DNA of 64,000 bases, from positions 13,541-77,540 of the IMG/VR virus record IMGVR_UViG_3300029305_004519, one strand, 5' to 3'. This DNA comes from a virus. Within the stretch, counting starts at the first letter, position 1, and the number at the start of each line of letters is the position of its first letter. The notes beneath the pieces are model-generated. The model worked only from the letters and a program-made list of their open reading frames with translations. It was not told where the DNA came from and made no database searches. This document shows, one piece after another, positions 3,756 to 51,287 of the stretch. Position numbers and translations under genes: made by a program.

Positions 3756-4124
3756 TTATAATTCATTTCTTTTCACCTGCTTTCCCCATGTGGGTGTAGT
3801 CGCAAGAGCATCGTAGTAATACTGATTACCCATTCCGCTATCTCCAAATCCGTATTCTCGGAAAGAAGCTAATTTCATATAAGAAATATAAAATCCAAGA
3901 GTAAAAGGTTTACCTTGTTTTTCTTTTGCATATCTTCGCTCCTTCCAAAAATATTCAAAATATGGGATATCAAGCTCTTCTAATATCCACATAAAAGTTT
4001 CTGGTCTATCAGGATCAAAATGCTTATTGATACAATCTTTGCAAATTTTAAAATAGTTGTTATGTTTGGTAGTTAAAAAACTTTTTTCTTCTTTTGTTTG
4101 ATGACAATTTTTACATTCTATCAC
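3756..4124 (-). CDS. Hypothetical Zn-finger protein
   Basis: CKNCH...CKDC motifs. 122 aa. Confidence 0.4.
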   Translation of the reverse strand: MIECKNCHQTKEEKSFLTTKHNNYFKICKDCINKHFDPDRPETFMWILEELDIPYFEYFWKERRYAKEKQGKPFTLGFYISYMKLASFREYGFGDSGMGNQYYYDALATTPTWGKQVKRNEL

Positions 4125-4340: not shown

Positions 4341-5452
4341 TATAATCTTACCCTTTCTTTAAATAATTTCATAAATGTTTCTGCGCCACAGTCGACGGGC
4401 GCATCTTTATATCCTAACATATCTCCCTTTTTATCAAAGATAAAAGAGATATTAACTAATTTCCTATATTTATTATGCAGCGCCGTTAGTTTCTTCGTCC
4501 ACTGCTTAAACTCTGCATCATTAGGTTCCTTAAATTGCTTATCAAAAGCAATCACTATCTCTATTGCTCCATACTGGCGCAAAAGGTCGACTTGATGCTG
4601 AATTAAGTTACTACCACAAGTTGCAACAGAGATGTCATTATCGGCACCAAACATTGATGCATATTTTAATGCGCTTTTCTCCCCCTCAAAGACTATTGCA
4701 GTTCTAAACTTACGGATGTTGTCTTTTGAGAAGTTTAAGTTATATAAAGCAAAACCTAATGGATGATTGTATTGAACGCCATTAAGAATCGCTGGTCGAT
4801 ACTTTCCGTATGCTTCTTCTTCTTTGATAAGCGTGCGTTCACGGATACCTATTAGTGCCCCATTTTCATCATAATGAGGTATCACAATACCTTGATTAAC
4901 TGGATCATAGCAGATACCGTGAGAATCCATTATCTCTTGAGTTATTCCTTCGTTAAGCCATGGCGTAATGCGCGGGCGTGGCAAATGCTGAAGAATATTT
5001 TCATCAAATTCTTTAAACTCAATTATTTTTTTATCATTACTGATGGAACTATTTTGTTGATAATTCTTTAAAATATCCCAATCACGAAGTTTTTGTTGAG
5101 AGTCTCCAAAATTTTCATCTTCAGATGAAGCTATGCTAAAGTAATGGGCAACATACCCTACGGCGCGCGATAGTGACCACTCTTCACCGCGCTGAAGCGC
5201 CCATTTGCGTGTTAGGTCAAAGATGTCGAATGAGTCACCACATTGAGTCCAACAATGGAACAACTTTGTATTCTCATAGTAGTAGAGTTTATGCGAACCA
5301 GTTCCGATTGGATTATGGCAGATGGTTCTTGAGATAAAGATTTCAGCACCATTTGAATCAAGTCGTGGTTCTCCTCCAAGCTCGGCAATATAATCGAATA
5401 CTTGTTGGAAGGTGAGTTGTTGCTTGATTGCGTCACTGTCATACCTCATTTT
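4340..5452 (-). CDS. DNA primase (DnaG-like; CHC2 zinc finger plus TOPRIM)
   Basis: CHNP...HKLYYYENTKLFHCWTQCG zinc finger; TOPRIM segment IVFEGEKSALK...VIAFDKQ. RBS GGGAGGAGAAAA upstream of the ATG at 5452. Confidence 0.8.
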   Translation of the reverse strand, partial: KMRYDSDAIKQQLTFQQVFDYIAELGGEPRLDSNGAEIFISRTICHNPIGTGSHKLYYYENTKLFHCWTQCGDSFDIFDLTRKWALQRGEEWSLSRAVGYVAHYFSIASSEDENFGDSQQKLRDWDILKNYQQNSSISNDKKIIEFKEFDENILQHLPRPRITPWLNEGITQEIMDSHGICYDPVNQGIVIPHYDENGALIGIRERTLIKEEEAYGKYRPAILNGVQYNHPLGFALYNLNFSKDNIRKFRTAIVFEGEKSALKYASMFGADNDISVATCGSNLIQHQVDLLRQYGAIEIVIAFDKQFKEPNDAEFKQWTKKLTALHNKYRKLVNISFIFDKKGDMLGYKDAPVDCGAETFMKLFKERVRL

Positions 5453-12362: not shown

Positions 12363-13556
12363 TTAGCTATTCCCGCGAGTTTTATTCAGGCCAAAATCAT
12401 ATGTTTGATAGAGGTCGATATAAAACTTCTCCTTTTCATTTAATTCATTGATACTACATTTTTCTAATACTTCAAAAGTAAAGTTATCAATACCTTTTTC
12501 TCTTGTGAATGCATAGAGTTGACTTGTTACAGGGGTGTCGATACCCAAGCTACATTTAACATGCGTTACCCAACGCTCTTTGATATCTTTAGCTTGTCCG
12601 ATGTATGATATGCCAGAGTCAATGTGGGTAATTTTATATATTCCACTTGCGCCCACCGCACCTACGCGCGCCGCAAGGTCATTGACTTTATCTCTATAGA
12701 ATGTAGACCATATAAGCATTCGCAAAGGTCTTGCCTCACGCAAATTATATTCAATGCTTTGAAGATATGCAACATCCCGTTTATCAGCTTCATTAATTTG
12801 AAGGGTATAAAATGTCGCTTGATTTTTAATTTCTTCTTCACGGAGTTGTGCCTCCATTGCGGCGGCCTTAGTTGCACGAATTTTTTCTAGCTCTTCACGA
12901 ATTGAATCTAAATCAGCGCGCATTGCCGCCTCTTCTTCTTGCAGCTCTTTAGACATTGATTGTTGCTTATCATAAAAGAGTTTTACAAGAATATCTAAAT
13001 CTTGACGCTGTTCTTCGATTAAACCATTTTCTCTAGCATCTAATTCTAACATTCTAGTGAAATAAAGCTCATCTAGCTTTGCGATGTCATTATTAAACTC
13101 CTGTTCTCGCTTTTGATATTCATAATCAAGAGTATCACAATATTGCTCAAATGAGGTGCGAGCAGCTGCCTTTAAACTACCTGACATCTCATCTATTGAG
13201 CGATTTAAAGTGGCGATTTGCGCCTCCACTCCTGCTTTTTCAATTTGCTTATTTTGAATTTCATTTATTAACAATAATTTCTATTGAGTTAATTGATTTA
13301 ATTCGTCATAAGAATTTTTTGTTTTTTTACAGTTCTCTTCATACTTTTGAGAAATTTCATTGTTAGATTTTATCAATAAGTCATTTTGAGCTTCTAGGCT
13401 TTTGCGAGTTGCATGTAATGACTAATTAAGCTCTTCCAGTTTCTAATTTTCTTCTGCTACATAGTGATTTGCTTTTATAGTTGTGGCTTTAGCCCATATT
13501 CCGTAAGCAAGGCCGCCTACGCCAAGAAGAATTGATATTACACATATGATTATCAT
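12363..13556 (-). CDS. GIY-YIG endonuclease with N-terminal TM/coiled-coil region and three in-frame TAG codons
   Basis: C-terminal GIYKITHIDSGISYIGQAKDIKERW (GIY-YIG). Reading up from the ORF-track start, the frame stays open through TAGs: MIIICVISILLGVGGLAYGIWAKATTIKANHYVAEEN[TAG]KLEELN[TAG]SLHATRKS...LNQLTQ[TAG]KLLLINEIQNK. Total 398 codons. Confidence 0.5.
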
Positions 13557-22467: not shown

Positions 22468-22543
22468 GCTTTAAGTATGGCTGGGAGTGTGGGATTCGAA
22501 CCCACGCATAACCGGGTTAGAGCCGGAGGCCTTAGCCGCTTGG
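22468..22543 (-). tRNA. Amber suppressor tRNA, anticodon CUA, tRNA-Gln-like body (tRNA-Sup(CUA), predicted Gln)
   Basis: Hand-folded canonical 76-nt cloverleaf: AGGGAGT/ACTCCCA acceptor (A1·A72 mismatch, G2-C71, G3-C70), G73, encoded CCA, D-arm GCCA/AGGC, anticodon loop C-U-C-U-A-A-C (U33, C34 U35 A36), T-arm GTGGG-TTCGAAT-CCCAC. Shares TCGCCAAGCGG...CCCAGCCA features with the tRNA-Gln(UUG) at 42331-42408. Confidence 0.8.
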
Positions 22544-22602
22544 CGAACTCCCTATTGATTACATATAAATTATAATCAAAATTTTTGAAAAAATCAATTA
22601 TT

Positions 22603-24560: not shown

Positions 24561-25127
24561 TCAATCATCATTTTCTAACAGCTCCTCACATTTCTTCATT
24601 TCTGCTTTAACATCAGCAATTGCGTCATCAAGTAAAACAGGATATCCATCATGAGAGTCTACTCCAATATGATACATCCAAGGATCTCCCTTATAGAAGT
24701 TAGATGCTTGATGAGTATGCCCAAACAAATTAATCACGACCTGCCAAATTTCTTTTTCATCCAGATTATGAGTAATAATAGGATAGTGAGAGAGATAGAA
24801 ATTTAGTTTCTTATATTTTAGTCTTGCACAAAGCTGAACATCCCAGCCCATATCTCGATAAGCCTGTTCGCGCTTAGCAGTATCGTGATTTCCAAGACAT
24901 ACATGGATTTTGCCTTTGAGTTGTTTAAGAAGCGCCAAACCTCCCTCAATGTCGCCTAATACCAAATCTCCAAGAATCCATACATCATCTTCATCAGACA
25001 CTACAGAATTGAACTTTTCAATCTGCTTCATATTCATTTCATTTACATCTGCATACCCTCTGGCGCCCCAGATAAACTCACGGTCATGCCCCAGATGCAG
25101 GTCGCTAGTGATCCAAATCTTGCTCAT
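24561..25127 (-). CDS. Calcineurin-like metallophosphoesterase
   Basis: SDLHLGH, GDLV, GNHD and GHTH motifs. Confidence 0.7.
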   Translation of the reverse strand: MSKIWITSDLHLGHDREFIWGARGYADVNEMNMKQIEKFNSVVSDEDDVWILGDLVLGDIEGGLALLKQLKGKIHVCLGNHDTAKREQAYRDMGWDVQLCARLKYKKLNFYLSHYPIITHNLDEKEIWQVVINLFGHTHQASNFYKGDPWMYHIGVDSHDGYPVLLDDAIADVKAEMKKCEELLENDD

Positions 25128-25627
25128 TTTTTCTCCTCCATATTTCCATTTTCATCAACAATATAAATTTTATTATAGGTAAAAATACCTTCATGCCACT
25201 TAGGTTCTTTAAGTGCACGATACATTTTTGCAATTGCTTCAGGCGGAACATAGGCACGTCCGGCGCGCTGTGCATTGCGCTCTTGCGCAACCTCAAGAGG
25301 AACCTTAAAATAAATTACCTCAATCTCATTAGGAATAATATCCAATGCTTTAAGCAACTTCAAGCGAGCGCCATGGTTAAGATGAGTTGCGTCTGCATAA
25401 ACAGTTTCTCCAGACTTTAAAAGAGATTCAATGCTTGCTACATAAGTTTCCCAAACCTCATCTTCCTTTGAGAAATAATTATCATTCTCTTGAAGTAAAG
25501 CAAAACGAATTGCATCTCTTGAGACAATAAATTCATCTATCTTTTTATTTTGGTTAAGCCAAGTGCTTTTCCCTGAACCCGGAATACCAACCATCAATAT
25601 CAGCTTACCATTTATCTTATATTCCAT
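25124..25627 (-). CDS. P-loop polynucleotide kinase-like protein
   Basis: LMVGIPGSGKST Walker A; AAA_33/T4 PNK-kinase-like. Translationally coupled to the phosphoesterase. Confidence 0.55.
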   Translation of the reverse strand: MEYKINGKLILMVGIPGSGKSTWLNQNKKIDEFIVSRDAIRFALLQENDNYFSKEDEVWETYVASIESLLKSGETVYADATHLNHGARLKLLKALDIIPNEIEVIYFKVPLEVAQERNAQRAGRAYVPPEAIAKMYRALKEPKWHEGIFTYNKIYIVDENGNMEEKK

Positions 25628-27243: not shown

Positions 27244-28434
27244 TTAAGAATGGTATTTCAAGAGGAACTCATTACTTACAGCTTTAAAGCTCAATTCGCC
27301 ATCTTCTGAACGGAATACTAAGCCTTCACGCATACCCCCATCAATCTTTGACGGCGCGGATGCGGCAAGAGTCAACACCTCTTCACAAGTAGCAGGAAGT
27401 TCTAGGCGCCCAAGCACGGGTACAGTAGGCAATCCATAGGTATCACAAATGATCTTCATATCAATAGGATTCAGGCGTTCAACCCTACCATCCTTATAAC
27501 CATAAATAACATTAAAGATAGCCAAATCACGATTCTTCATTCCATAATCGCGCTTTTGCACAGAGGCACCGTAGATTTCGCCTTGAATGGTAAGAAATTC
27601 CAATTCCCTATCACAATTGTCCATCCATTCCATCCAACGAGCCATAACATTTTCCATATCATACTTTTCCGCCATTTCAACATAAATGTTGGTGTCATAA
27701 AAACACTTCTTATCTGGCTTATCAAATACGACATTTCGAGAGCAAACATAGAACTCTCTCTTTTTGCCTTTGCCGCGCAAGGTAAAGGTTGAAGAACTAC
27801 CATCAATTTTTTCAGTCAAGATCCAAGTTTTACGCTCTGAAGTATTGAAAAGATAAGGTAGATTTTGAACGCGCTCTTCATCAGTCTTTTTTACCCAAGC
27901 CGGCCAGCCATTTTTCTTATCTTTCTTTTTACCAAAGAAGAAGAACATTAGGCGGCGACCCCATTCGCGCTTCATTAACCAACGTGCCCACTTCTTTTTA
28001 AAGATGTCAGGTCTGCGCTGAGCCATTCTCTTATACTTGTCAGGTCCAGATCCTTTACGCTCATTATCAGCAGCTTCAGAATAAGTTACACCAAGCAACT
28101 CGGTGCAATCAACATTAGTTTCATTAGGAATTTTTACATCAAAGGCATTGATAGGAAGCGCCAAGCCTTGACTAATAACTCCAAACTTAGAAAGTTTCAT
28201 ACTCTTAACCTTAAACTTTTTAGGTGCCAAAAATGCACACCATTCCTTGTCTTCGGGTAGTTTTGAGTCAATCTCAAAATATACGCAAAGGTCTCCTGCT
28301 TTAAACTCACCGATCTTAGCGATACAAGTCCATCCGCCAATCCCAACAAGCTCTATATTATCAGCACCTTCAATAGGTCTTACCCAGTCTATACGAGTAG
28401 TATAAGCCAGTGCTCTTTTATCATTTATCAGCAT
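27244..28434 (-). CDS. ATP-dependent RNA ligase (Rnl family nucleotidyltransferase)
   Basis: Covalent nucleotidyltransferase motif I, TEKIDGSS (KxDG). 396 aa. Confidence 0.55.
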   Translation of the reverse strand: MLINDKRALAYTTRIDWVRPIEGADNIELVGIGGWTCIAKIGEFKAGDLCVYFEIDSKLPEDKEWCAFLAPKKFKVKSMKLSKFGVISQGLALPINAFDVKIPNETNVDCTELLGVTYSEAADNERKGSGPDKYKRMAQRRPDIFKKKWARWLMKREWGRRLMFFFFGKKKDKKNGWPAWVKKTDEERVQNLPYLFNTSERKTWILTEKIDGSSSTFTLRGKGKKREFYVCSRNVVFDKPDKKCFYDTNIYVEMAEKYDMENVMARWMEWMDNCDRELEFLTIQGEIYGASVQKRDYGMKNRDLAIFNVIYGYKDGRVERLNPIDMKIICDTYGLPTVPVLGRLELPATCEEVLTLAASAPSKIDGGMREGLVFRSEDGELSFKAVSNEFLLKYHS

Positions 28435-28559: not shown

Positions 28560-29480
28560 TTATACCTCCAAACATTCTCTCAGCAATCCTGCGCGTAGCG
28601 GATTGCGCAGTTTGCGCAAGGCCTTTTCTTCAATCTGTCTAATGCGCTCTTTAGATAGCTTATATTCATTTCCAATTTCTTCCAAAGTCTGAGCTTTATG
28701 ATTATTCAAACCATAGCGACGTGTCAGCACATCTGCTTCTCTATTGTCAAGAGTTGATAATACTTGTTGAATACGCTTAGAGACTTCTTCTTTGAAAATG
28801 TCTTCAATTGGAGATTCATTATTTTCATCTGCTACTAAATCGCCAATAGTTGCATCATCTTCATCATTGATACTTTGATCAATAGAGATTGGGTCTTTAA
28901 CAATAGCTCGCAACTCTTTAATTTTCTTTTCTTCAAGTCCCATATGATTTGCAAGCTCTTGTGTGGTAGGTTCTCTATTCAGTACTTGACAGAGTTCATT
29001 AGTGGCACGACTCAGTTTACTAAGTTGCTCAATAACATGCATAGGTACTCGAATGGCTCGCGATTGCTCAACGACAACTTTAGAGATACTTTGTTTAATC
29101 CACCATGTAGCGTAGGTAGAAAATTTATAACCTAAAGTATAATCCCACTTATCTACGGCGCGCATTAATCCAATATTTCCCTCTTGAATTAAATCAAGAA
29201 ATGGCATATTGGTACGATGTAAATATTTTTTTGCAATACTTACTACCAAACGCAAATTTGCTTCAATCAGTTTATTCCTTGCTTCAATACTTCCATTTGC
29301 AATTTGGGCGCCTAAAGCTTGCTCTTCTTCGTAGGAGAGCAAAGGAATTTTACTAATTGAGTTCATATATGCTTTTGTTGCGTCTGGTAAAAAACCCATA
29401 TTATCAAAATCTACATCAATACTATTTTCTTCCTCAAGAATCAAATCTTCCGCTTCTAAAATCATTACATTATTTTCCAT
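28560..29480 (-). CDS. Sigma-70 family RNA polymerase sigma factor (regions 1.2, 2, 3 and 4 all present)
   Basis: ...[14 protein letters not shown]...[19 protein letters not shown]...[10 protein letters not shown] (region 2) ... [28 protein letters not shown] (region 4.2 HTH). Confidence 0.8.
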
Positions 29481-40443: not shown

Positions 40444-41228
40444 GCATATTAAGTTTTCAATAATCGCATAAGAAAATATATAATCACTTTAACGAGCCTT
40501 CACTCTACATCGTTTCTGAAGTGCGTTATTAACATATGTTCACGGGAGGCTGAGCAATGGGTAGCGATCCCACGCTTCTCCAATGGTTCTCTCTATCTTG
40601 CCCCGATAGGAAAGCAAGTAAATTAAACTACCACACCCTCGATCAATACTAAGGGAACTTTCACCGAGCTTCAGCATTAATTCTAAAATACCTGTTTTCA
40701 TCAAATTTGAAGCTATCTTTTATGCCCGATACGGCTACTCGCACCAGCCAAATCTGTTATAGTTTGTTACCAAACATCAACGGGAACGCTTATTTTTGAG
40801 ATACCTAGTTGATTATTCGCTTCATAACGGTTTCTCACGCCGCCAACTTTAGGTGGTATGCATCACTGCAGGGACTCTTCTCGCGCCAGATTCCTGACTG
40901 TTGTTTACGCTAAATCATCAATATGCACCATTATCCGCAACCTTTGTCAGGCATACTCGTTTATTCAGTATATTCACGAGTTTTATTTACTTTAGAGCAG
41001 TATCCCACTCTGTTTCTTTCCCCGCGGATCTGTCCTAGCCATCATGCAAGATGTCTGCACTAGGATGTTAAAGGTTTATATATTTTCTTATGCAATTATC
41101 AATGAACTTTTTTCTTTTGATTACTTAATCATTATATCATAAATTTTTTAAGTTTTCAAGAGAGAGGTGAGGCTTTAGGTCAGCCGACCGCACATCTGTT
41201 GATTGCTGGAACTTTTGCTCTTCCAAAA

Positions 41229-43078: not shown

Positions 43079-43193
43079 AAGAAAGAGAGGGGAGAATTTT
43101 TATACCCAGCAAGAGATAACTCTCCAAACTCAGAGTTTTACGAGGCGCCCGTCGATACTCGCTGGCAGCATCAAGGCGCAGATTAAATCATAT

Positions 43194-43270
43194 TGGTCTG
43201 AATGAAGGGACTCGAACCCCCAGCCTCTAGATCCCAAATCTAGAGCTCTGCCAAATTGAGCTACATCCAG
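43194..43270 (-). tRNA. tRNA-Pro(UGG)
   Basis: Acceptor CTGGATG/CATTCAG (C1-G72), A73, anticodon stem CTAGA/TCTAG with loop UUUGGGA. Confidence 0.65.
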
Positions 43271-43980
43271 ATGTGGTTCCATAAGGTCGGAAACCTCGCC
43301 GCACATTTTTCACCTACTAGCAGGGTCGCCATTTGCTCAATGCGATTATAAGAGCTTTTAAGCGCTTTCACGCGGAGGCTCTTACTTTATATTCCAGCTT
43401 TTGGATGCGGGAAGCTGGACCCGCGCCATTCATAGGGTTCGCGGATAAACCATCACCTACTACTAAGCCACATCATAACTTGCCCACTTCATCTTGGAGG
43501 AGCGACTCCAGCGGATATTTGGCCCACCGCTGCCTGTGTCTTGAGACTCAACACTATTACCTGTGTTTTTATATAGCGTTTTCAGCTTCGCTTTCTACTC
43601 GCTCTGTTGATAGGGGGAGGATCGAAGGGACTCCTCCCAGAGGTCATTATAGAAAAGAACCGTAGCGGAAATCTATTGGCGGTTCAATTTGTCTGCTTTA
43701 TCCGCAATTGAGAGGGAAACGGACTAAATGCTCTCGCAGGGGTTAAGGTACCCTGTTTTTGTAAGACATTACTCGAGTTATTCTTACCACAACTTCCGAC
43801 TTTACCTAATAGGCTGGTTTTCGCATTATCCATTTACCACAGTTTTCCTCCATTCATACTTGACTTCCGGCTTCGTGGCACCTATTATCTTTCCCGTTGC
43901 TCACGGATACGGGACCCCGGACGCTCTGCGTATTACCGCACAGGTTAGTCTCCTGACCAATGATTAGGCATTGGCACCTC

Positions 43981-44146
43981 TGGTGGAATGGGTAGGAGTT
44001 GAACCTACTTTGTCGCGACACACCGTGGCTTTACCGATTGCTTACCACCCCATAAATTGTGAGCGTTTATGCTTGGTAGCTCACTCCACTTCTGACCACT
44101 GGTCTTACACTCCCAGAGCGTGAAGATTTCAATACGGTTCTTCAAC
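43981..44146 (-). ncRNA. tRNA-like 3' domain (T-arm, G3·U70 acceptor, ACCA) without D and anticodon arms. Could be a tmRNA-like or other structured RNA.
   Basis: Minus strand ends ...GTAGG-TTCAACT-CCTAC-CCATTCC-A-CCA. Candidate 5' partner strands GGGGTGG (about 40 nt upstream) or GGAATGG (about 160 nt upstream). The interior has a perfect palindrome, GTGTCGCGACAC, not an anticodon arm. Confidence 0.3.
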
Positions 44147-44287
44147 CATTCCGCAGTATGCCGTTGGCTAACGATGACATACGATTCGTATCAGACTGTA
44201 GTACTCCAGCTTTTCACCTACGGCGTCTGATAATCGCCTTTTGTTAGTTTAGGGTTAATGCCGCGACGAACTAACAAAACTCGGCAT

Positions 44288-44363
44288 TGGCGACTCTGAG
44301 GCATTCCGACAGCCCGACCTTCGCAGTGACAGTGCGATGCTCTACCCCCTGAGCTACAGAGCC
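44288..44363 (-). tRNA. tRNA-Asp(GUC)
   Basis: Acceptor GGCTCTG/CAGAGTC, G73, D-arm GCTC-AGGGGGTA-GAGC, anticodon stem TCGCA/TGCGA with loop CUGUCAC. T-arm is irregular. Confidence 0.5.
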
Positions 44364-44524
44364 AAATATTAAAATAAAAGACTGGCTCAGTATGGATATT
44401 TCACCATAAGAAAAGTTTCCTGATTTAAGACTGACTAACTTGATGCCTGTTGATACGCGTTTATCTGAACAGGTCTTATTCGTTAAAATCCAGTCACCAA
44501 ATGTTGCTTTTTTTCTTTCTTTAT

Positions 44525-44970: not shown

Positions 44971-45047
44971 TGGTGGGAAGAATTGGAGTCGAACCAACAC
45001 ACTCTGGTTTTTCAGACCAGCGCTTAGACCGCTTAAGCTATCTTCCC
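44971..45047 (-). tRNA. tRNA-Phe(GAA)
   Basis: Acceptor GGGAAGA/TCTTCCC, A73, anticodon stem CTGGT/ACCAG with loop CUGAAAA. Confidence 0.7.
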
Positions 45048-46056: not shown

Positions 46057-46455
46057 ATAATGCACAGATTCTCGTACTGTGCGCAGTCCCATATGGCGCC
46101 TTGAAAAGACTGCACGAGGAATGTTTATACAGGCACATTCACTCAAACCTAACCTAGACTTCTCAATAAGGTCACACTGTGTGCTTTCTCTACTACGGCG
46201 GTTCGCACGCTTTAATGTCTCGCACAAAAGACAGCTGGCAGAGAGCGCAGGTCCCGACCCTGAGCGGATAACCGCCACATCCCTTAGCAGGGGAGTGCCG
46301 CGCCTTGCGACTTCACTCTCTATAATGTGTGTTCCACTTGCGTTTTCTCTTCTTCATCGGTTTACACACAACCTACCACTTGAAGCGCCACTAATTTATA
46401 TACCGAGTCTGGCTTTCGTCGGTGAATTACACTAATTGTGTTACTTTGCGCTGGT

Positions 46456-46613
46456 GCTACCCCCGGGACTCGAACCCGGACGCCTCTAACGAGACACTGG
46501 ATTTTTGGTGCCTGAAATGAGATTTGAACTCATAATCTGAAGCTAGGTCGCCCCAGAGTTTTCCGTTTGAGCTTATTCAAGCAAGTCCAGGGCGTCTGCC
46601 ATTCCGCCACGGT
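46456..46613 (-). ncRNA. Composite tRNA-like element: a class II tRNA interrupted in its anticodon loop by an ~85-nt insert that itself ends in a tRNA-like T-arm, acceptor and CCA
   Basis: 5' half GCTACCG..CTGGA-CUUGC..., then ...GAGTTCAAATCTCATTTCAGGCACCA, then AAAATCCAG plus variable arm GTCTC-GTTA-GAGGC, then CCGGG-TTCGAGT-CCCGG-GGGTAGC-A-CCA. Confidence 0.35.
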
Positions 46614-46626
46614 AGCATAATGCGTC

Positions 46627-47345: not shown

Positions 47346-47417
47346 TGGTGCCAGAATCTGGAGTCAAACCAAACACTCAAGGTGTATGAAACCTCAATGC
47401 GCATCGGCGCTTCTGGC
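47346..47417 (-). tRNA. tRNA-Met(CAU) (elongator type or Ile2-type)
   Basis: Acceptor GCCAGAA/TTCTGGC (G1-C72), A73, anticodon stem GAGGT/ACCTT with loop UUCAUAC. Short D-arm. Confidence 0.5.
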
Positions 47418-50547: not shown

Positions 50548-50590
50548 ATAAAATGGTATTCCCTCAGAGACTCGAACTCTGGGTCTTCTA

Positions 50591-50630
50591 TAATTGATGA
50601 GGAAATTATTCCTCATCAATTAATTTTTGA
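50591..50630. terminator. Perfect 11-bp hairpin plus T-run, at the 3' end of gene 50606-51055
   Basis: TTGATGAGGAA-atta-TTCCTCATCAA followed by TTAATTTTTG. Confidence 0.45.
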
Positions 50631-51055
50631 TACTGTGCTTCAAAACAATAATCTTCTGCTAATCTTATTCCTATTTTTTGGTTATTTTTCGGTGGATCAA
50701 GCCTAATATTTAATTGTTGTGGAATACTCTCGTCGCTATCTTGAACAATATATAATCCGCACCAATTATTTTCTACGCAGTATAAGAAAAAAATATCAAT
50801 ATCGCGTGTAGAATAAGGCACACTTTTCCATGAACCTTTAGTATAGTTCGTAGTTTTAGTAGCAAATTCCATTTTTCCATCTTTAACTGCATTAGTAGCT
50901 TTAACTTGCACTCGATATATCTTATGATTTATTTCTACAACTAAATCATATCGTGCATTATTAGATAAAGGCTTGGAAACAATTGCTCCCTTAGATAAAA
51001 AATTCACCAAAGCTAATGCTTCTCCATAATCTCCAATTGAAACAGTATTCGACAT
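50606..51055 (-). CDS. Hypothetical protein
   Basis: 149-aa ORF. Confidence 0.4.
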   Translation of the reverse strand: MSNTVSIGDYGEALALVNFLSKGAIVSKPLSNNARYDLVVEINHKIYRVQVKATNAVKDGKMEFATKTTNYTKGSWKSVPYSTRDIDIFFLYCVENNWCGLYIVQDSDESIPQQLNIRLDPPKNNQKIGIRLAEDYCFEAQYQKLIDEE

Positions 51056-51287
51056 TTAAAAAGTCCTCCTTTAATATTTTATATTTTTCTGTTCACTATT
51101 ATATAAAAATTAAAGTAATATCTTTAAATAAAACTGACCAAATTTTTGTCAATAGGTTGTTTATTAGTCAGACGCTTTACCATCTAAGCTAAGGGAATAT
51201 ATTTACTTCCAACCGCCGAACGAGTAGCACGGTCATCTGGTCTCCTTTAATGGCAAGACGCTTACTACATTTCTCATGTTTTCCTTG

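Follow-up and report, generated by a model that had tools for sequence, protein, structure and literature searches.

An anticodon-less tRNA-shaped element at the border of two conserved non-coding RNAs in a phage tRNA array

Results

Organization of the locus

The window (the whole 64,000-nt stretch of viral DNA analysed here, positions 13,541 to 77,540 of IMG/VR record IMGVR_UViG_3300029305_004519) comes from a large phage genome, and every long ORF within it lies on the minus strand. Among the gene products are gyrase A, NAPRTase, an SPFH protein, a major-vault-protein-like protein, a sigma-70 factor and RNase H. A tRNA array, also on the minus strand, spans about 40.1-51.4 kb. ARAGORN finds 24 tRNAs in the array and an amber-suppressor-type tRNA at 22478, and Rfam adds to the array a tRNA-Asp (44291-44363) and a ROOL RNA (40474-41088, 175 bits). 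The CCA end is encoded in every tRNA of the array. By BLAST, GenBank phages share just the tRNA-Pro with the region described below.

Relatives of the locus were reached through homologues of a 143-aa protein that flanks the array, on contigs from many metagenome assemblies, and their modules were mapped by blastn and direct reading. The comparison covers 13 distinct contigs (L001, L002, L010, L015, L016, L017, L020, L026, L031, L041, L046, L048 and the truncated L034), in which the homologous region is a mosaic of conserved non-coding modules with tRNAs between them. Exact-word searches of viral contigs gave no match for the 3' end of the element, and two words from the large RNA (L, below) recovered two contigs already known plus a chance match in a GC-rich coding region (L008). 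A word from module M yielded no additional relatives in viral contigs or genome collections, and the L core word had no match in genomes; an exact-word scan of metagenomes contributed one useful locus, L020.

Read along the minus strand, the unit runs in the order promoter-like site, module U, tRNA-Asp, module M, tRNA-shaped element, RNA L, tRNA-Pro. The promoter-like site (TTGATT-17-TG-TATAAT, 44566-44538) is a consensus match only. Module U (44500-44376) is a conserved 125-nt leader upstream of the tRNA-Asp, with 80-94% identity in 10 relatives. The tRNA-Asp (GUC; 44288-44363, Rfam 44.9 bits), which has an unusual T loop and is not called by ARAGORN, forms the upstream boundary of M. M itself (44052-44287) is a conserved non-coding RNA between the tRNA-Asp and the element, ending in a hairpin (GAGUGAGC...GCUCAC) followed by AAUUUAU. 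It is 71-98% conserved in L001, L010, L015, L016, L020, L031, L041, L046 and L048, always starts immediately 3' of a tRNA CCA, measures about 230-300 nt, and matches no Rfam 15 family at E<=10.

On the other side of the element lies L (43390-43980, minus strand), a large non-coding RNA conserved in the 13 distinct relatives. The first-pass annotation had noted a GC-rich non-coding block at 43275-43980 with the element at its edge, and this is borne out: all three stops occur in all six frames, and the GC content is 47.9% against 38.4% for the window. L is built from a variable 5' segment that exists in three versions (type A in the window, 43980-43920), a constant hairpin with AAUAGGUGCCACGAAGC that forms its core (43918-43870), a mosaic middle, and a conserved block at the 3' end, about 256 nt long (43646-43391), which carries a terminal hairpin, CCAGCUU...AGCUGG (43418-43394). 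Its size across relatives ranges from about 450 to 2300 nt. When ten sequences of the 3' block are aligned, 96.5% of the cells pair, and double compensatory changes are found in 12 of the 41 predicted pairs, against 6.7 +/- 1.4 in shuffled alignments (0/500 shuffles reach this number) and 1-4 in slid controls. We place no weight on the long-range 5'-3' pairings that three sequences predict for L, because L017 joins a different 5' segment to the same 3' block.

L has no Rfam 15 match at E<=10. This led us to reject its identification as GOLLD, ROOL, RNase P RNA or a group I intron, the GOLLD model having been verified on phiCbK; the 3' domain of GOLLD (RF02032) is likewise without a match in window positions 43150-44450 at E<=10 and in L016 at E<=5. 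A full-text literature search returned no description of an RNA like L. L and M are conserved non-coding RNAs absent from Rfam 15 and undescribed in the literature searched. The unit is bounded downstream by a tRNA-Pro (UGG; 43194-43270, minus strand, called by ARAGORN and by Rfam with 63.6 bits). A window-specific 110-nt spacer separates this tRNA from L; in L001, L002 and L015 the tRNA-Pro follows L within about 7 nt or less, and across relatives the tRNA found 3' of L is usually tRNA-Pro.

A 71-nt element with the top half of a tRNA

Between M and L, direct reading, the Rfam tRNA model and a stem table delimit a 71-nt tRNA-shaped element on the minus strand (44051->43981). It consists of an acceptor 5' strand GGGGUGG (44051-44045), U8 and A9 (44044-44043), a D arm (44042-44027), A26 (44026), a 17-nt stub, CGGUGUGUCGCGACAAA, in place of an anticodon arm (44025-44009), a T arm GUAGG-UUCAACU-CCUAC (44008-43992), an acceptor 3' strand CCAUUCC (43991-43985), A73 (43984) and an encoded CCA (43983-43981). 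The 3' end (44008->43981) is exactly as first annotated, GTAGG-TTCAACT-CCTAC-CCATTCC-A-CCA. That annotation also held that the D and anticodon arms are both missing, which is correct for the anticodon arm; a weak D arm is present, however, and is aligned by Rfam. It reads AGCA-AUCGGUAA-AGCC, with two central G-C pairs, only two or three pairs in its stem, and the D-loop GG retained. The stub folds at best into a 3-bp tetraloop hairpin and holds a 10-nt palindrome, TGTCGCGACA (44020-44011), previously written as a 12-mer that does not occur in the sequence.

The outer extent of the element had been given as 43981-44146, with two candidate strands to complete its acceptor stem. Both strands exist, GGGGTGG at 44051-44045 and GGAATGG at 44152-44146, but the distal one is a chance match outside the element: it falls within 30 nt that the window has and L001 does not (alignment columns 245-274), and at the corresponding place nothing in L001 complements that contig's own 3' acceptor strand. 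We accordingly take the 71-mer 44051->43981 as the element and discard a 172-nt version using the distal strand; the folding of the 180-nt region is no stronger than that of shuffled sequence (z=-0.40). With the proximal strand the acceptor stem has seven base pairs, GGGGUGG/CCAUUCC, including G3.U70 and G4.U69. The G3.U70 pair that had attracted attention is thus genuine with this strand only, since the distal strand would give A3-U70.

The element shares with canonical tRNA (RF00005) the 7-bp acceptor stem, U8, the D-loop GG, a T arm with a UUCRA loop, the discriminator base and CCA. It differs in lacking the 5-bp anticodon stem and its 7-nt loop (U33, anticodon, purine 37), in going uncalled by ARAGORN, and in scoring 28.1 bits (E=0.0022) with the Rfam tRNA model, just under the gathering cut-off of 29. 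The Rfam alignment spans 44051->43984 with acceptor, D and T arms paired, and places 10 nt against the 15 anticodon-arm positions of the model. What the element retains is the 'top half' of a tRNA with its elbow, namely acceptor stem, T arm, D-loop GG, A73 and encoded CCA; having lost the anticodon arm, it is unable to decode.

Chance is a poor explanation for such an arrangement. A motif made up of a five-pair T stem, a TTCRA-type loop, 7 nt, any base and CCA occurs 24 times on the minus strand and not at all on the plus strand, against 0.115 expected per 60 kb, or 0.005 when a 7/7 matching 5' strand is included, under a first-order Markov null with the composition of the tRNA array. With the motif so far above chance, we regard the element as real.

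Comparison with tmRNA

The first-pass annotation took the element for a possible tmRNA-like RNA, and several features do recall the tRNA-like domain of tmRNA (RF00023, RF04321): the G3.U70 acceptor, A73, CCA, a T arm whose loop, GGUUCAACUCC, resembles that of tmRNA, and the absence of an anticodon. In addition, L016 gives a single weak and partial match to the tmRNA_permuted model (14.7 bits, E=3.5). However, the tmRNA search of ARAGORN finds nothing at the element, and none of the Rfam tmRNA families (standard, alpha, beta, cyano, permuted) matches in window positions 43150-44450 at E<=10. The same Rfam library, run on phiCbK as a positive control, detects the real permuted tmRNA of that phage with 71.4 bits and its GOLLD RNA with 165.3 bits.

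The architecture of the element also differs from that of a tmRNA. It has a D stem, and it has neither an mRNA-like domain (resume codon, tag ORF, stop) nor pseudoknots; the 17 nt between its D and T arms leave no space for a tag ORF or pseudoknots and hold no reading frame, and homologues fill this middle with unrelated sequences of 22-58 nt. For a permuted form, the supposed 5' strand GGGUGAG stays constant while the 3' acceptor strands vary, without covariation, and G3.U70 is not conserved among the elements found at this position in relatives. A tmRNA or tmRNA-like ribosome-rescue RNA, in one piece or permuted, therefore appears vanishingly improbable, and we regard this reading as refuted within the reach of sequence and structure models.

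A tRNA-shaped unit precedes L in every relative

The slot directly 5' of L is always occupied by a tRNA-shaped unit (13/13 relatives), the last base of which precedes the 5' segment of L. In three contigs (L002, L017, L041) the occupant is a true tRNA-Asp, and in ten it is an anticodon-less tRNA-like of one of three types: type 1, which resembles the window element (L016, L020, L026), type 2 (L001, L015, L048), and type 3, about 100 nt long (L010, L031, L046). ARAGORN calls the type-2 element of L001 a tRNA-SeC(tca), with a loop, CGUCAAG, that lacks U33. The border with L is sharp: in the window, L001, L002, L015 and L020, CCA is followed without a gap by the conserved sequence of L, and in L048 the same holds for CTA.

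Type-1 elements have in common G1-C72, G2-C71, the T arm, A73 and CCA, and their acceptor positions 4-6 vary yet pair, the copy in L026 having two acceptor mismatches. The filler that replaces the anticodon arm measures 17 nt in the window, 23 in L016, 22 in L026 and 58 in L020, and is unrelated between elements.

M and L are separable modules. L002 and L017 carry L without M, and in L041 M is followed by a genuine tRNA-Phe and then by unrelated sequence, with L appearing later, after a tRNA-Asp. This bears on a different view of the locus, in which the element would remain unexcised as the tRNA-like domain of one long ornate RNA comprising U/M, the element and L, in the manner of the GOLLD linkers. 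GOLLD RNAs have a 5' part that varies, a linker in which tRNAs are sometimes found and a 3' domain that is conserved (PMC12286853), and our phiCbK control has a tRNA-Gly embedded in its GOLLD linker. L is similarly large, structured and mosaic, has a tRNA-shaped unit directly 5' of its conserved domain, and shares its tRNA array with a ROOL RNA 2.9 kb from the element. Yet L goes unrecognized by the GOLLD and ROOL models even at E<=10, the unit in the window is an anticodon-less tRNA-like and not a decoding tRNA, M and L occur independently, and the true tRNAs that fill the slot in some relatives need release in order to function. We consider a permanently attached domain distinctly unlikely.

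The slot elements also speak to the G3.U70 pair, which the first-pass annotation used as an argument for alanine identity. AlaRS charges minihelices bearing G3.U70 independently of the anticodon, so that an alanine-accepting tRNA mimic, a minihelix-like AlaRS substrate serving as a decoy or in some non-ribosomal role, might be envisaged; G1-C72, G2-C71, G3.U70 and A73 are indeed constant in the window, L016 and L020 as positions 4-6 vary. G3.U70 is confined to these three of the four type-1 elements, however, and no other slot element has it: L026 has A3-U70, and types 2 and 3 have U-A or C-G at 3:70, with T73 in all except L048 (type 2), which has A73. At 3:70, one of the two tRNA-Phe genes that were compared carries G-C and the other A-U, and G.U is the expected intermediate between these. 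The tRNA-Ala of the array is among the tRNAs least similar to the element, which led us to discard a decayed copy of that gene as its origin. We conclude that alanine acceptance is not supported as a conserved feature of the slot elements, that the identity argument is weak, and that an alanine mimic is highly unlikely.

Covariation, 5' context and decay

Compensatory change was assessed over 13 elements, combining slot elements with the tRNA-shaped inserts described below. Acceptor and T-stem cells are paired in 98.1% of cases, a percentage inflated by the fact that several of these elements came from a scan that requires pairing (the slot elements were located by position, not by pairing). 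Double changes are present in 9 of the 12 acceptor and T-stem pairs, and the covariation score is 0.877, compared with 0.273 +/- 0.041 for shuffled alignments (0/500) and at most 0.29 for slid controls. G18, G19, T54, T55, C56, A58 and C61 are invariant across elements. MAFFT misaligned the 5' ends of two family members, and a covariance model of the tRNA-like family was dropped, as it would score any tRNA and offer no discrimination. The invariant elbow and the covarying stems indicate that the top half of the tRNA shape is maintained and the bottom half is not, a pattern that argues for selection on shape rather than on sequence.

The 5' end of the element also resembles that of its neighbours. 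Bacterial RNase P prefers U at -1, and T stands at this position in 25 of 27 tRNA 5' ends of the window, as well as before the element, T making up 28% of the bases.

These observations have to be set against a simpler account, also raised in the first-pass annotation as a degenerate tRNA remnant: the element could be a functionless pseudogene, a decaying and possibly tRNA-Phe-like copy that has lost its anticodon arm and persists between genes. The sub-threshold Rfam score, the missing ARAGORN call, the weak D stem, the acceptor G.U pairs and the degenerate L026 copy all fit decay. As to origin, tRNA-Phe is, weakly, the nearest tRNA of the array, the L016 element has the T arm of tRNA-Phe (GUUGG/CCAAC), the position after M is held by a real tRNA-Phe in L041, and a functional tRNA-Phe is found elsewhere in the window (44971-45047). 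Against simple decay, acceptor positions 4-6 differ among the window, L016 and L020 and still pair, the elbow nucleotides do not change, the slot is filled in 13/13 relatives despite an otherwise highly mosaic array, and the conserved flanks adjoin the element to the base. The term 'remnant' is close to the truth, with covariation and constant position arguing for one that is maintained. A pseudogene without any function seems to us rather unlikely; a pseudogene origin and a role in processing are not mutually exclusive.

tRNA-shaped inserts within tRNA genes

Our scan found further uncalled tRNA-shaped units in the window, one of which (46582->46506, 77 nt) lies inside a class II tRNA. In the window and its relatives, we deleted in silico each 40-140-nt stretch that ends in NCCA and has a perfect 7-bp terminal stem (n=703), and ran ARAGORN on the joined flanks. 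A canonical tRNA was restored in 11 of the 703 deletions (9 after merging two L026/L027 duplicates), with the junction always after the first anticodon base (U34|N35). Inserts of 49, 77 or 103 nt interrupt tRNA-Leu(UAA) seven times, a 78-nt insert interrupts tRNA-Lys(UUU) twice, in the duplicate contigs L026 and L027, and a 75-nt insert interrupts tRNA-Gln(UUG) once.

Independently, the intron mode of ARAGORN reports in the window a tRNA-Leu(taa) at 46616-46452 with a 77-nt intron. Splicing is predicted to join CUGGACUU to AAAAUCCAG (window 46583|46505), and the joined exons are identical at 82/88 positions to the uninterrupted tRNA-Leu(taa) of L017, the six differences all being in the variable arm, which still pairs. 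Intact exons with compensating changes of this kind suggest that the split tRNA genes are functional. If so, the inserts must leave precisely at their 5' base and after CCA, and these would be the same two cuts as those proposed below for the element between M and L.

The inserts start with G, end with GCACCA and have a 7-bp acceptor-like stem, and all of them lack an anticodon loop. A T arm is found in most, the 49-nt inserts carrying a short hairpin only, and most contain a D-like AAUUGGUA. Some are related to one another and to slot elements: the type-2 slot element shares homology with the Gln insert (32/41 central positions, z=7.8), as does the window Leu insert with the Lys insert (28/43, z=7.2). 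The window element has weak similarity to the Lys insert (23/43, z=3.6) and to the window Leu insert (z=2.5), and it displays the traits of an insert in its 7-bp acceptor-like stem, T arm, A73-CCA, T at -1 and missing anticodon loop. It is not among the 11/703 deletions that restore a tRNA, and sits between M and L, not within an anticodon loop. Phage tRNA genes with tRNA-shaped inserts are not described in the full-text literature searched.

Discussion

The data presented here portray the element as a maintained, anticodon-less, tRNA-derived module that lies between two undescribed non-coding RNAs of the phage and most likely acts as a processing handle. Its position, the covariation of its stems and the T at -1 make this the best explanation of those we have weighed, and on the sequence evidence the element probably serves as tRNA-derived 'punctuation' between M and L. 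It stands at the exact border of two independently conserved RNAs, at a place where relatives have a true tRNA, and elements of the same shape lie within tRNA genes of the same genomes, where exact cuts at the 5' base and after CCA would be required. Several of its features are pseudogene-like and weigh against such a role: the tRNA score is below threshold, two of the acceptor pairs are G.U, the D stem has just 2-3 pairs, and the L026 copy is degenerate. The unremarkable folding of the 180-nt region and the weak similarity of the window element to the tRNA inserts also count against it.

A rough proposal for the processing of this unit can nevertheless be outlined. The element would be co-transcribed with its neighbours, as part of one transcription unit in the phage tRNA array. 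Cleavage by RNase P at the 5' end of the element would free the 3' end of M, and a second cut, made at the CCA or directly behind it by the enzymes that mature tRNA 3' ends, would free the 5' end of L, with the neighbouring tRNAs punctuating the rest of the array in like manner. In many bacteria, precursors that contain CCA are not cleaved by RNase Z, and the 3' cut would therefore need another enzyme or an atypical RNase Z.

Comparable systems are known. Mitochondrial tRNAs punctuate transcripts, and the tRNA-like structures of MALAT1 (mascRNA) and MEN-beta are cut by RNase P and RNase Z. In common with these, the phage element has a non-decoding tRNA fold that borders long non-coding RNAs, and as in mascRNA and MEN-beta the acceptor and T 'top half' is kept and the anticodon region is variable. 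It differs in its phage (bacterial) setting, in its encoded CCA, in having conserved RNAs on both sides, and in belonging to a family that also occurs within tRNA genes; moreover, cleavage of the phage element is our proposal from sequence. The T4 tRNA cluster includes stable RNAs of unknown function, species 1 and 2 (rnaC and rnaD). These are likewise non-tRNA stable RNAs, co-transcribed and co-processed with phage tRNAs, but they are not known as anticodon-less cloverleaves, and the likeness is one of description.

If the punctuation model holds, a stripped-down tRNA shape would act as a border marker between phage non-coding RNAs. Such a role would explain why ROOL and GOLLD are frequently embedded in tRNA arrays, as their ends may come from tRNA-processing enzymes. 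More novel than the element itself are RNA L and RNA M, which are found in a group of phage contigs of about 120-136 kb, all from metagenome assemblies, and the tRNA-shaped inserts that interrupt tRNA genes.

The genomes in which these inserts divide tRNA genes at the wobble position also code for an RNA ligase, a kinase and a phosphoesterase. The inserts open a further, more tentative possibility, which goes beyond punctuation and which we put forward as a speculation from the sequences: the element may belong to an undescribed class of tRNA-shaped excisable intervening elements that are cut out by tRNA end-processing enzymes, the exons being sealed by a phage ligase. RNase P would then act at the 5' G of an insert and a nuclease directly after its CCA, and the phage RNA ligase would join the exons, with the kinase and the phosphoesterase healing the ends if needed. 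At the locus described here, excision of the element by these enzymes would set M and L free, or perhaps lead to their being joined. Were the inserts spliced in this way, they would represent a new kind of tRNA intron and give phage RNA repair enzymes a new role, in what would amount to a protein-dependent splicing route via tRNA mimicry in a bacterial virus. Candidates for these activities are encoded in the window itself, namely an RNA ligase (27244-28434; PF09414 with a PHA02142 OB domain), a kinase of the AAA_33 family (25124-25627) and a phosphoesterase of the Metallophos family (24561-25127), and one relative, L037, has a T4 Rnl1-type ligase at the equivalent place.

Split tRNA genes

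Several tRNA genes of these phages are interrupted by stretches that are themselves tRNA-shaped. The minus-strand tRNA-Leu(UAA) gene at 46452-46616 carries a 77-nt insert at 46506-46582, placed between U34 and A35, which has an acceptor-like stem (GCUUGAA/UUCAGGC), a T arm, A73 and CCA but lacks an anticodon loop. Once joined, the exons match the intact tRNA-Leu(taa) of the related phage contig L017; they depart from it only in the variable arm, where the changes are compensated. In other related contigs (L001, L010, L015, L026, L041 and L048), this position is where inserts of the same kind, ranging from 49 to 103 nt, interrupt genes for Leu(UAA), Lys(UUU) and Gln(UUG).

A much longer insert of 569 nt was predicted by the intron mode of ARAGORN within an interrupted tRNA at 50554-51198 (minus strand). 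It contains, on the minus strand at 50606-51055, an ORF for a PD-(D/E)XK_5 endonuclease (PF11645). This Pfam family includes I-Ssp6803I, a homing endonuclease encoded by the intron of a tRNA gene. The predicted tRNA with this insert gave no match to the Rfam group I intron model at the gathering score. Up to four PD-(D/E)XK_5 endonuclease genes are found in the array of relatives, along with GIY-YIG and HNH genes.

The phage also encodes a set of RNA repair or ligation genes on the minus strand, upstream of which lies a phage sigma-70 gene (28560-29480). The set consists of an RNA ligase (27244-28434; PF09414 with a PHA02142 OB domain) and, within 24561-25627, separate genes for a Metallophos phosphoesterase (24561-25127) and for a kinase of AAA_33/KTI12-like type (25124-25627). 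In one relative, L037, the equivalent place is occupied by a T4 Rnl1-type ligase (PF09511).

The large RNA L and its neighbours

The large mosaic non-coding RNA that we call L lies on the minus strand at 43390-43980 and varies from about 450 to 2300 nt across its homologues, which are present in L001, L002, L010, L015, L016, L017, L020, L026, L031, L041, L046 and L048. It has both a conserved, covarying 3' block and a conserved core, GGGGUCCCG...AAUAGGUGCCACGAAGC...CAGUGGUAAAUGGA; searched against Rfam 15, L matched no family at E≤10. One array houses both L and a ROOL RNA. In the window, the ROOL RNA (RF03087) is a full-length model match of 175.2 bits at 40474-41088 (minus strand), flanked by tRNA-Leu(CAA) and tRNA-Thr.

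Two smaller modules on the minus strand, M (44052-44287) and U (44376-44500), are likewise conserved and non-coding, and neither matched in Rfam. M invariably has a tRNA CCA end on one side and a tRNA or tRNA-like 5' end on the other. U forms a leader preceding tRNA-Asp and is itself preceded by a promoter-like site (44566-44538).

In the window, the tRNA-Asp(GUC) that precedes M (44288-44363) has a non-canonical T loop, GUCGGAA. Its place is taken in L015 (about 4405-4482), L016 (about 2652-2728) and L048 (about 3795-3872) by an Asp-like gene whose D region is aberrant and whose T loop reads GGCAGCA. A loop resembling this one, GGCAGCA or GUCAGCA, also occurs in the 49-nt Leu inserts.

Other tRNAs and array neighbours

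The array lacks any called tRNA-Met because a 72-nt tRNA-Met-like gene on the minus strand (47346-47417) went uncalled. Its acceptor is GCCAGAA/UUCUGGC, its D hairpin has 4 bp and a loop of 4 nt, and its 7-bp anticodon stem carries the loop UUCAUAC with anticodon CAU; the same type was called by ARAGORN in L001, L010 and L026.

Adjoining the array, and conserved there in all relatives, is a minus-strand gene (30716-33283) for a protein of 855 aa that carries the shoulder and repeat domains of major vault protein (PF11978, PF17795); an SPFH/flotillin-like protein is encoded at 37476-39014. Away from the array, next to an RNase H gene, lies an isolated minus-strand tRNA of the amber-suppressor type (22478-22553; anticodon CUA; Rfam tRNA, 48.2 bits), called tRNA-Pyl by ARAGORN, through which the phage may recode TAG.
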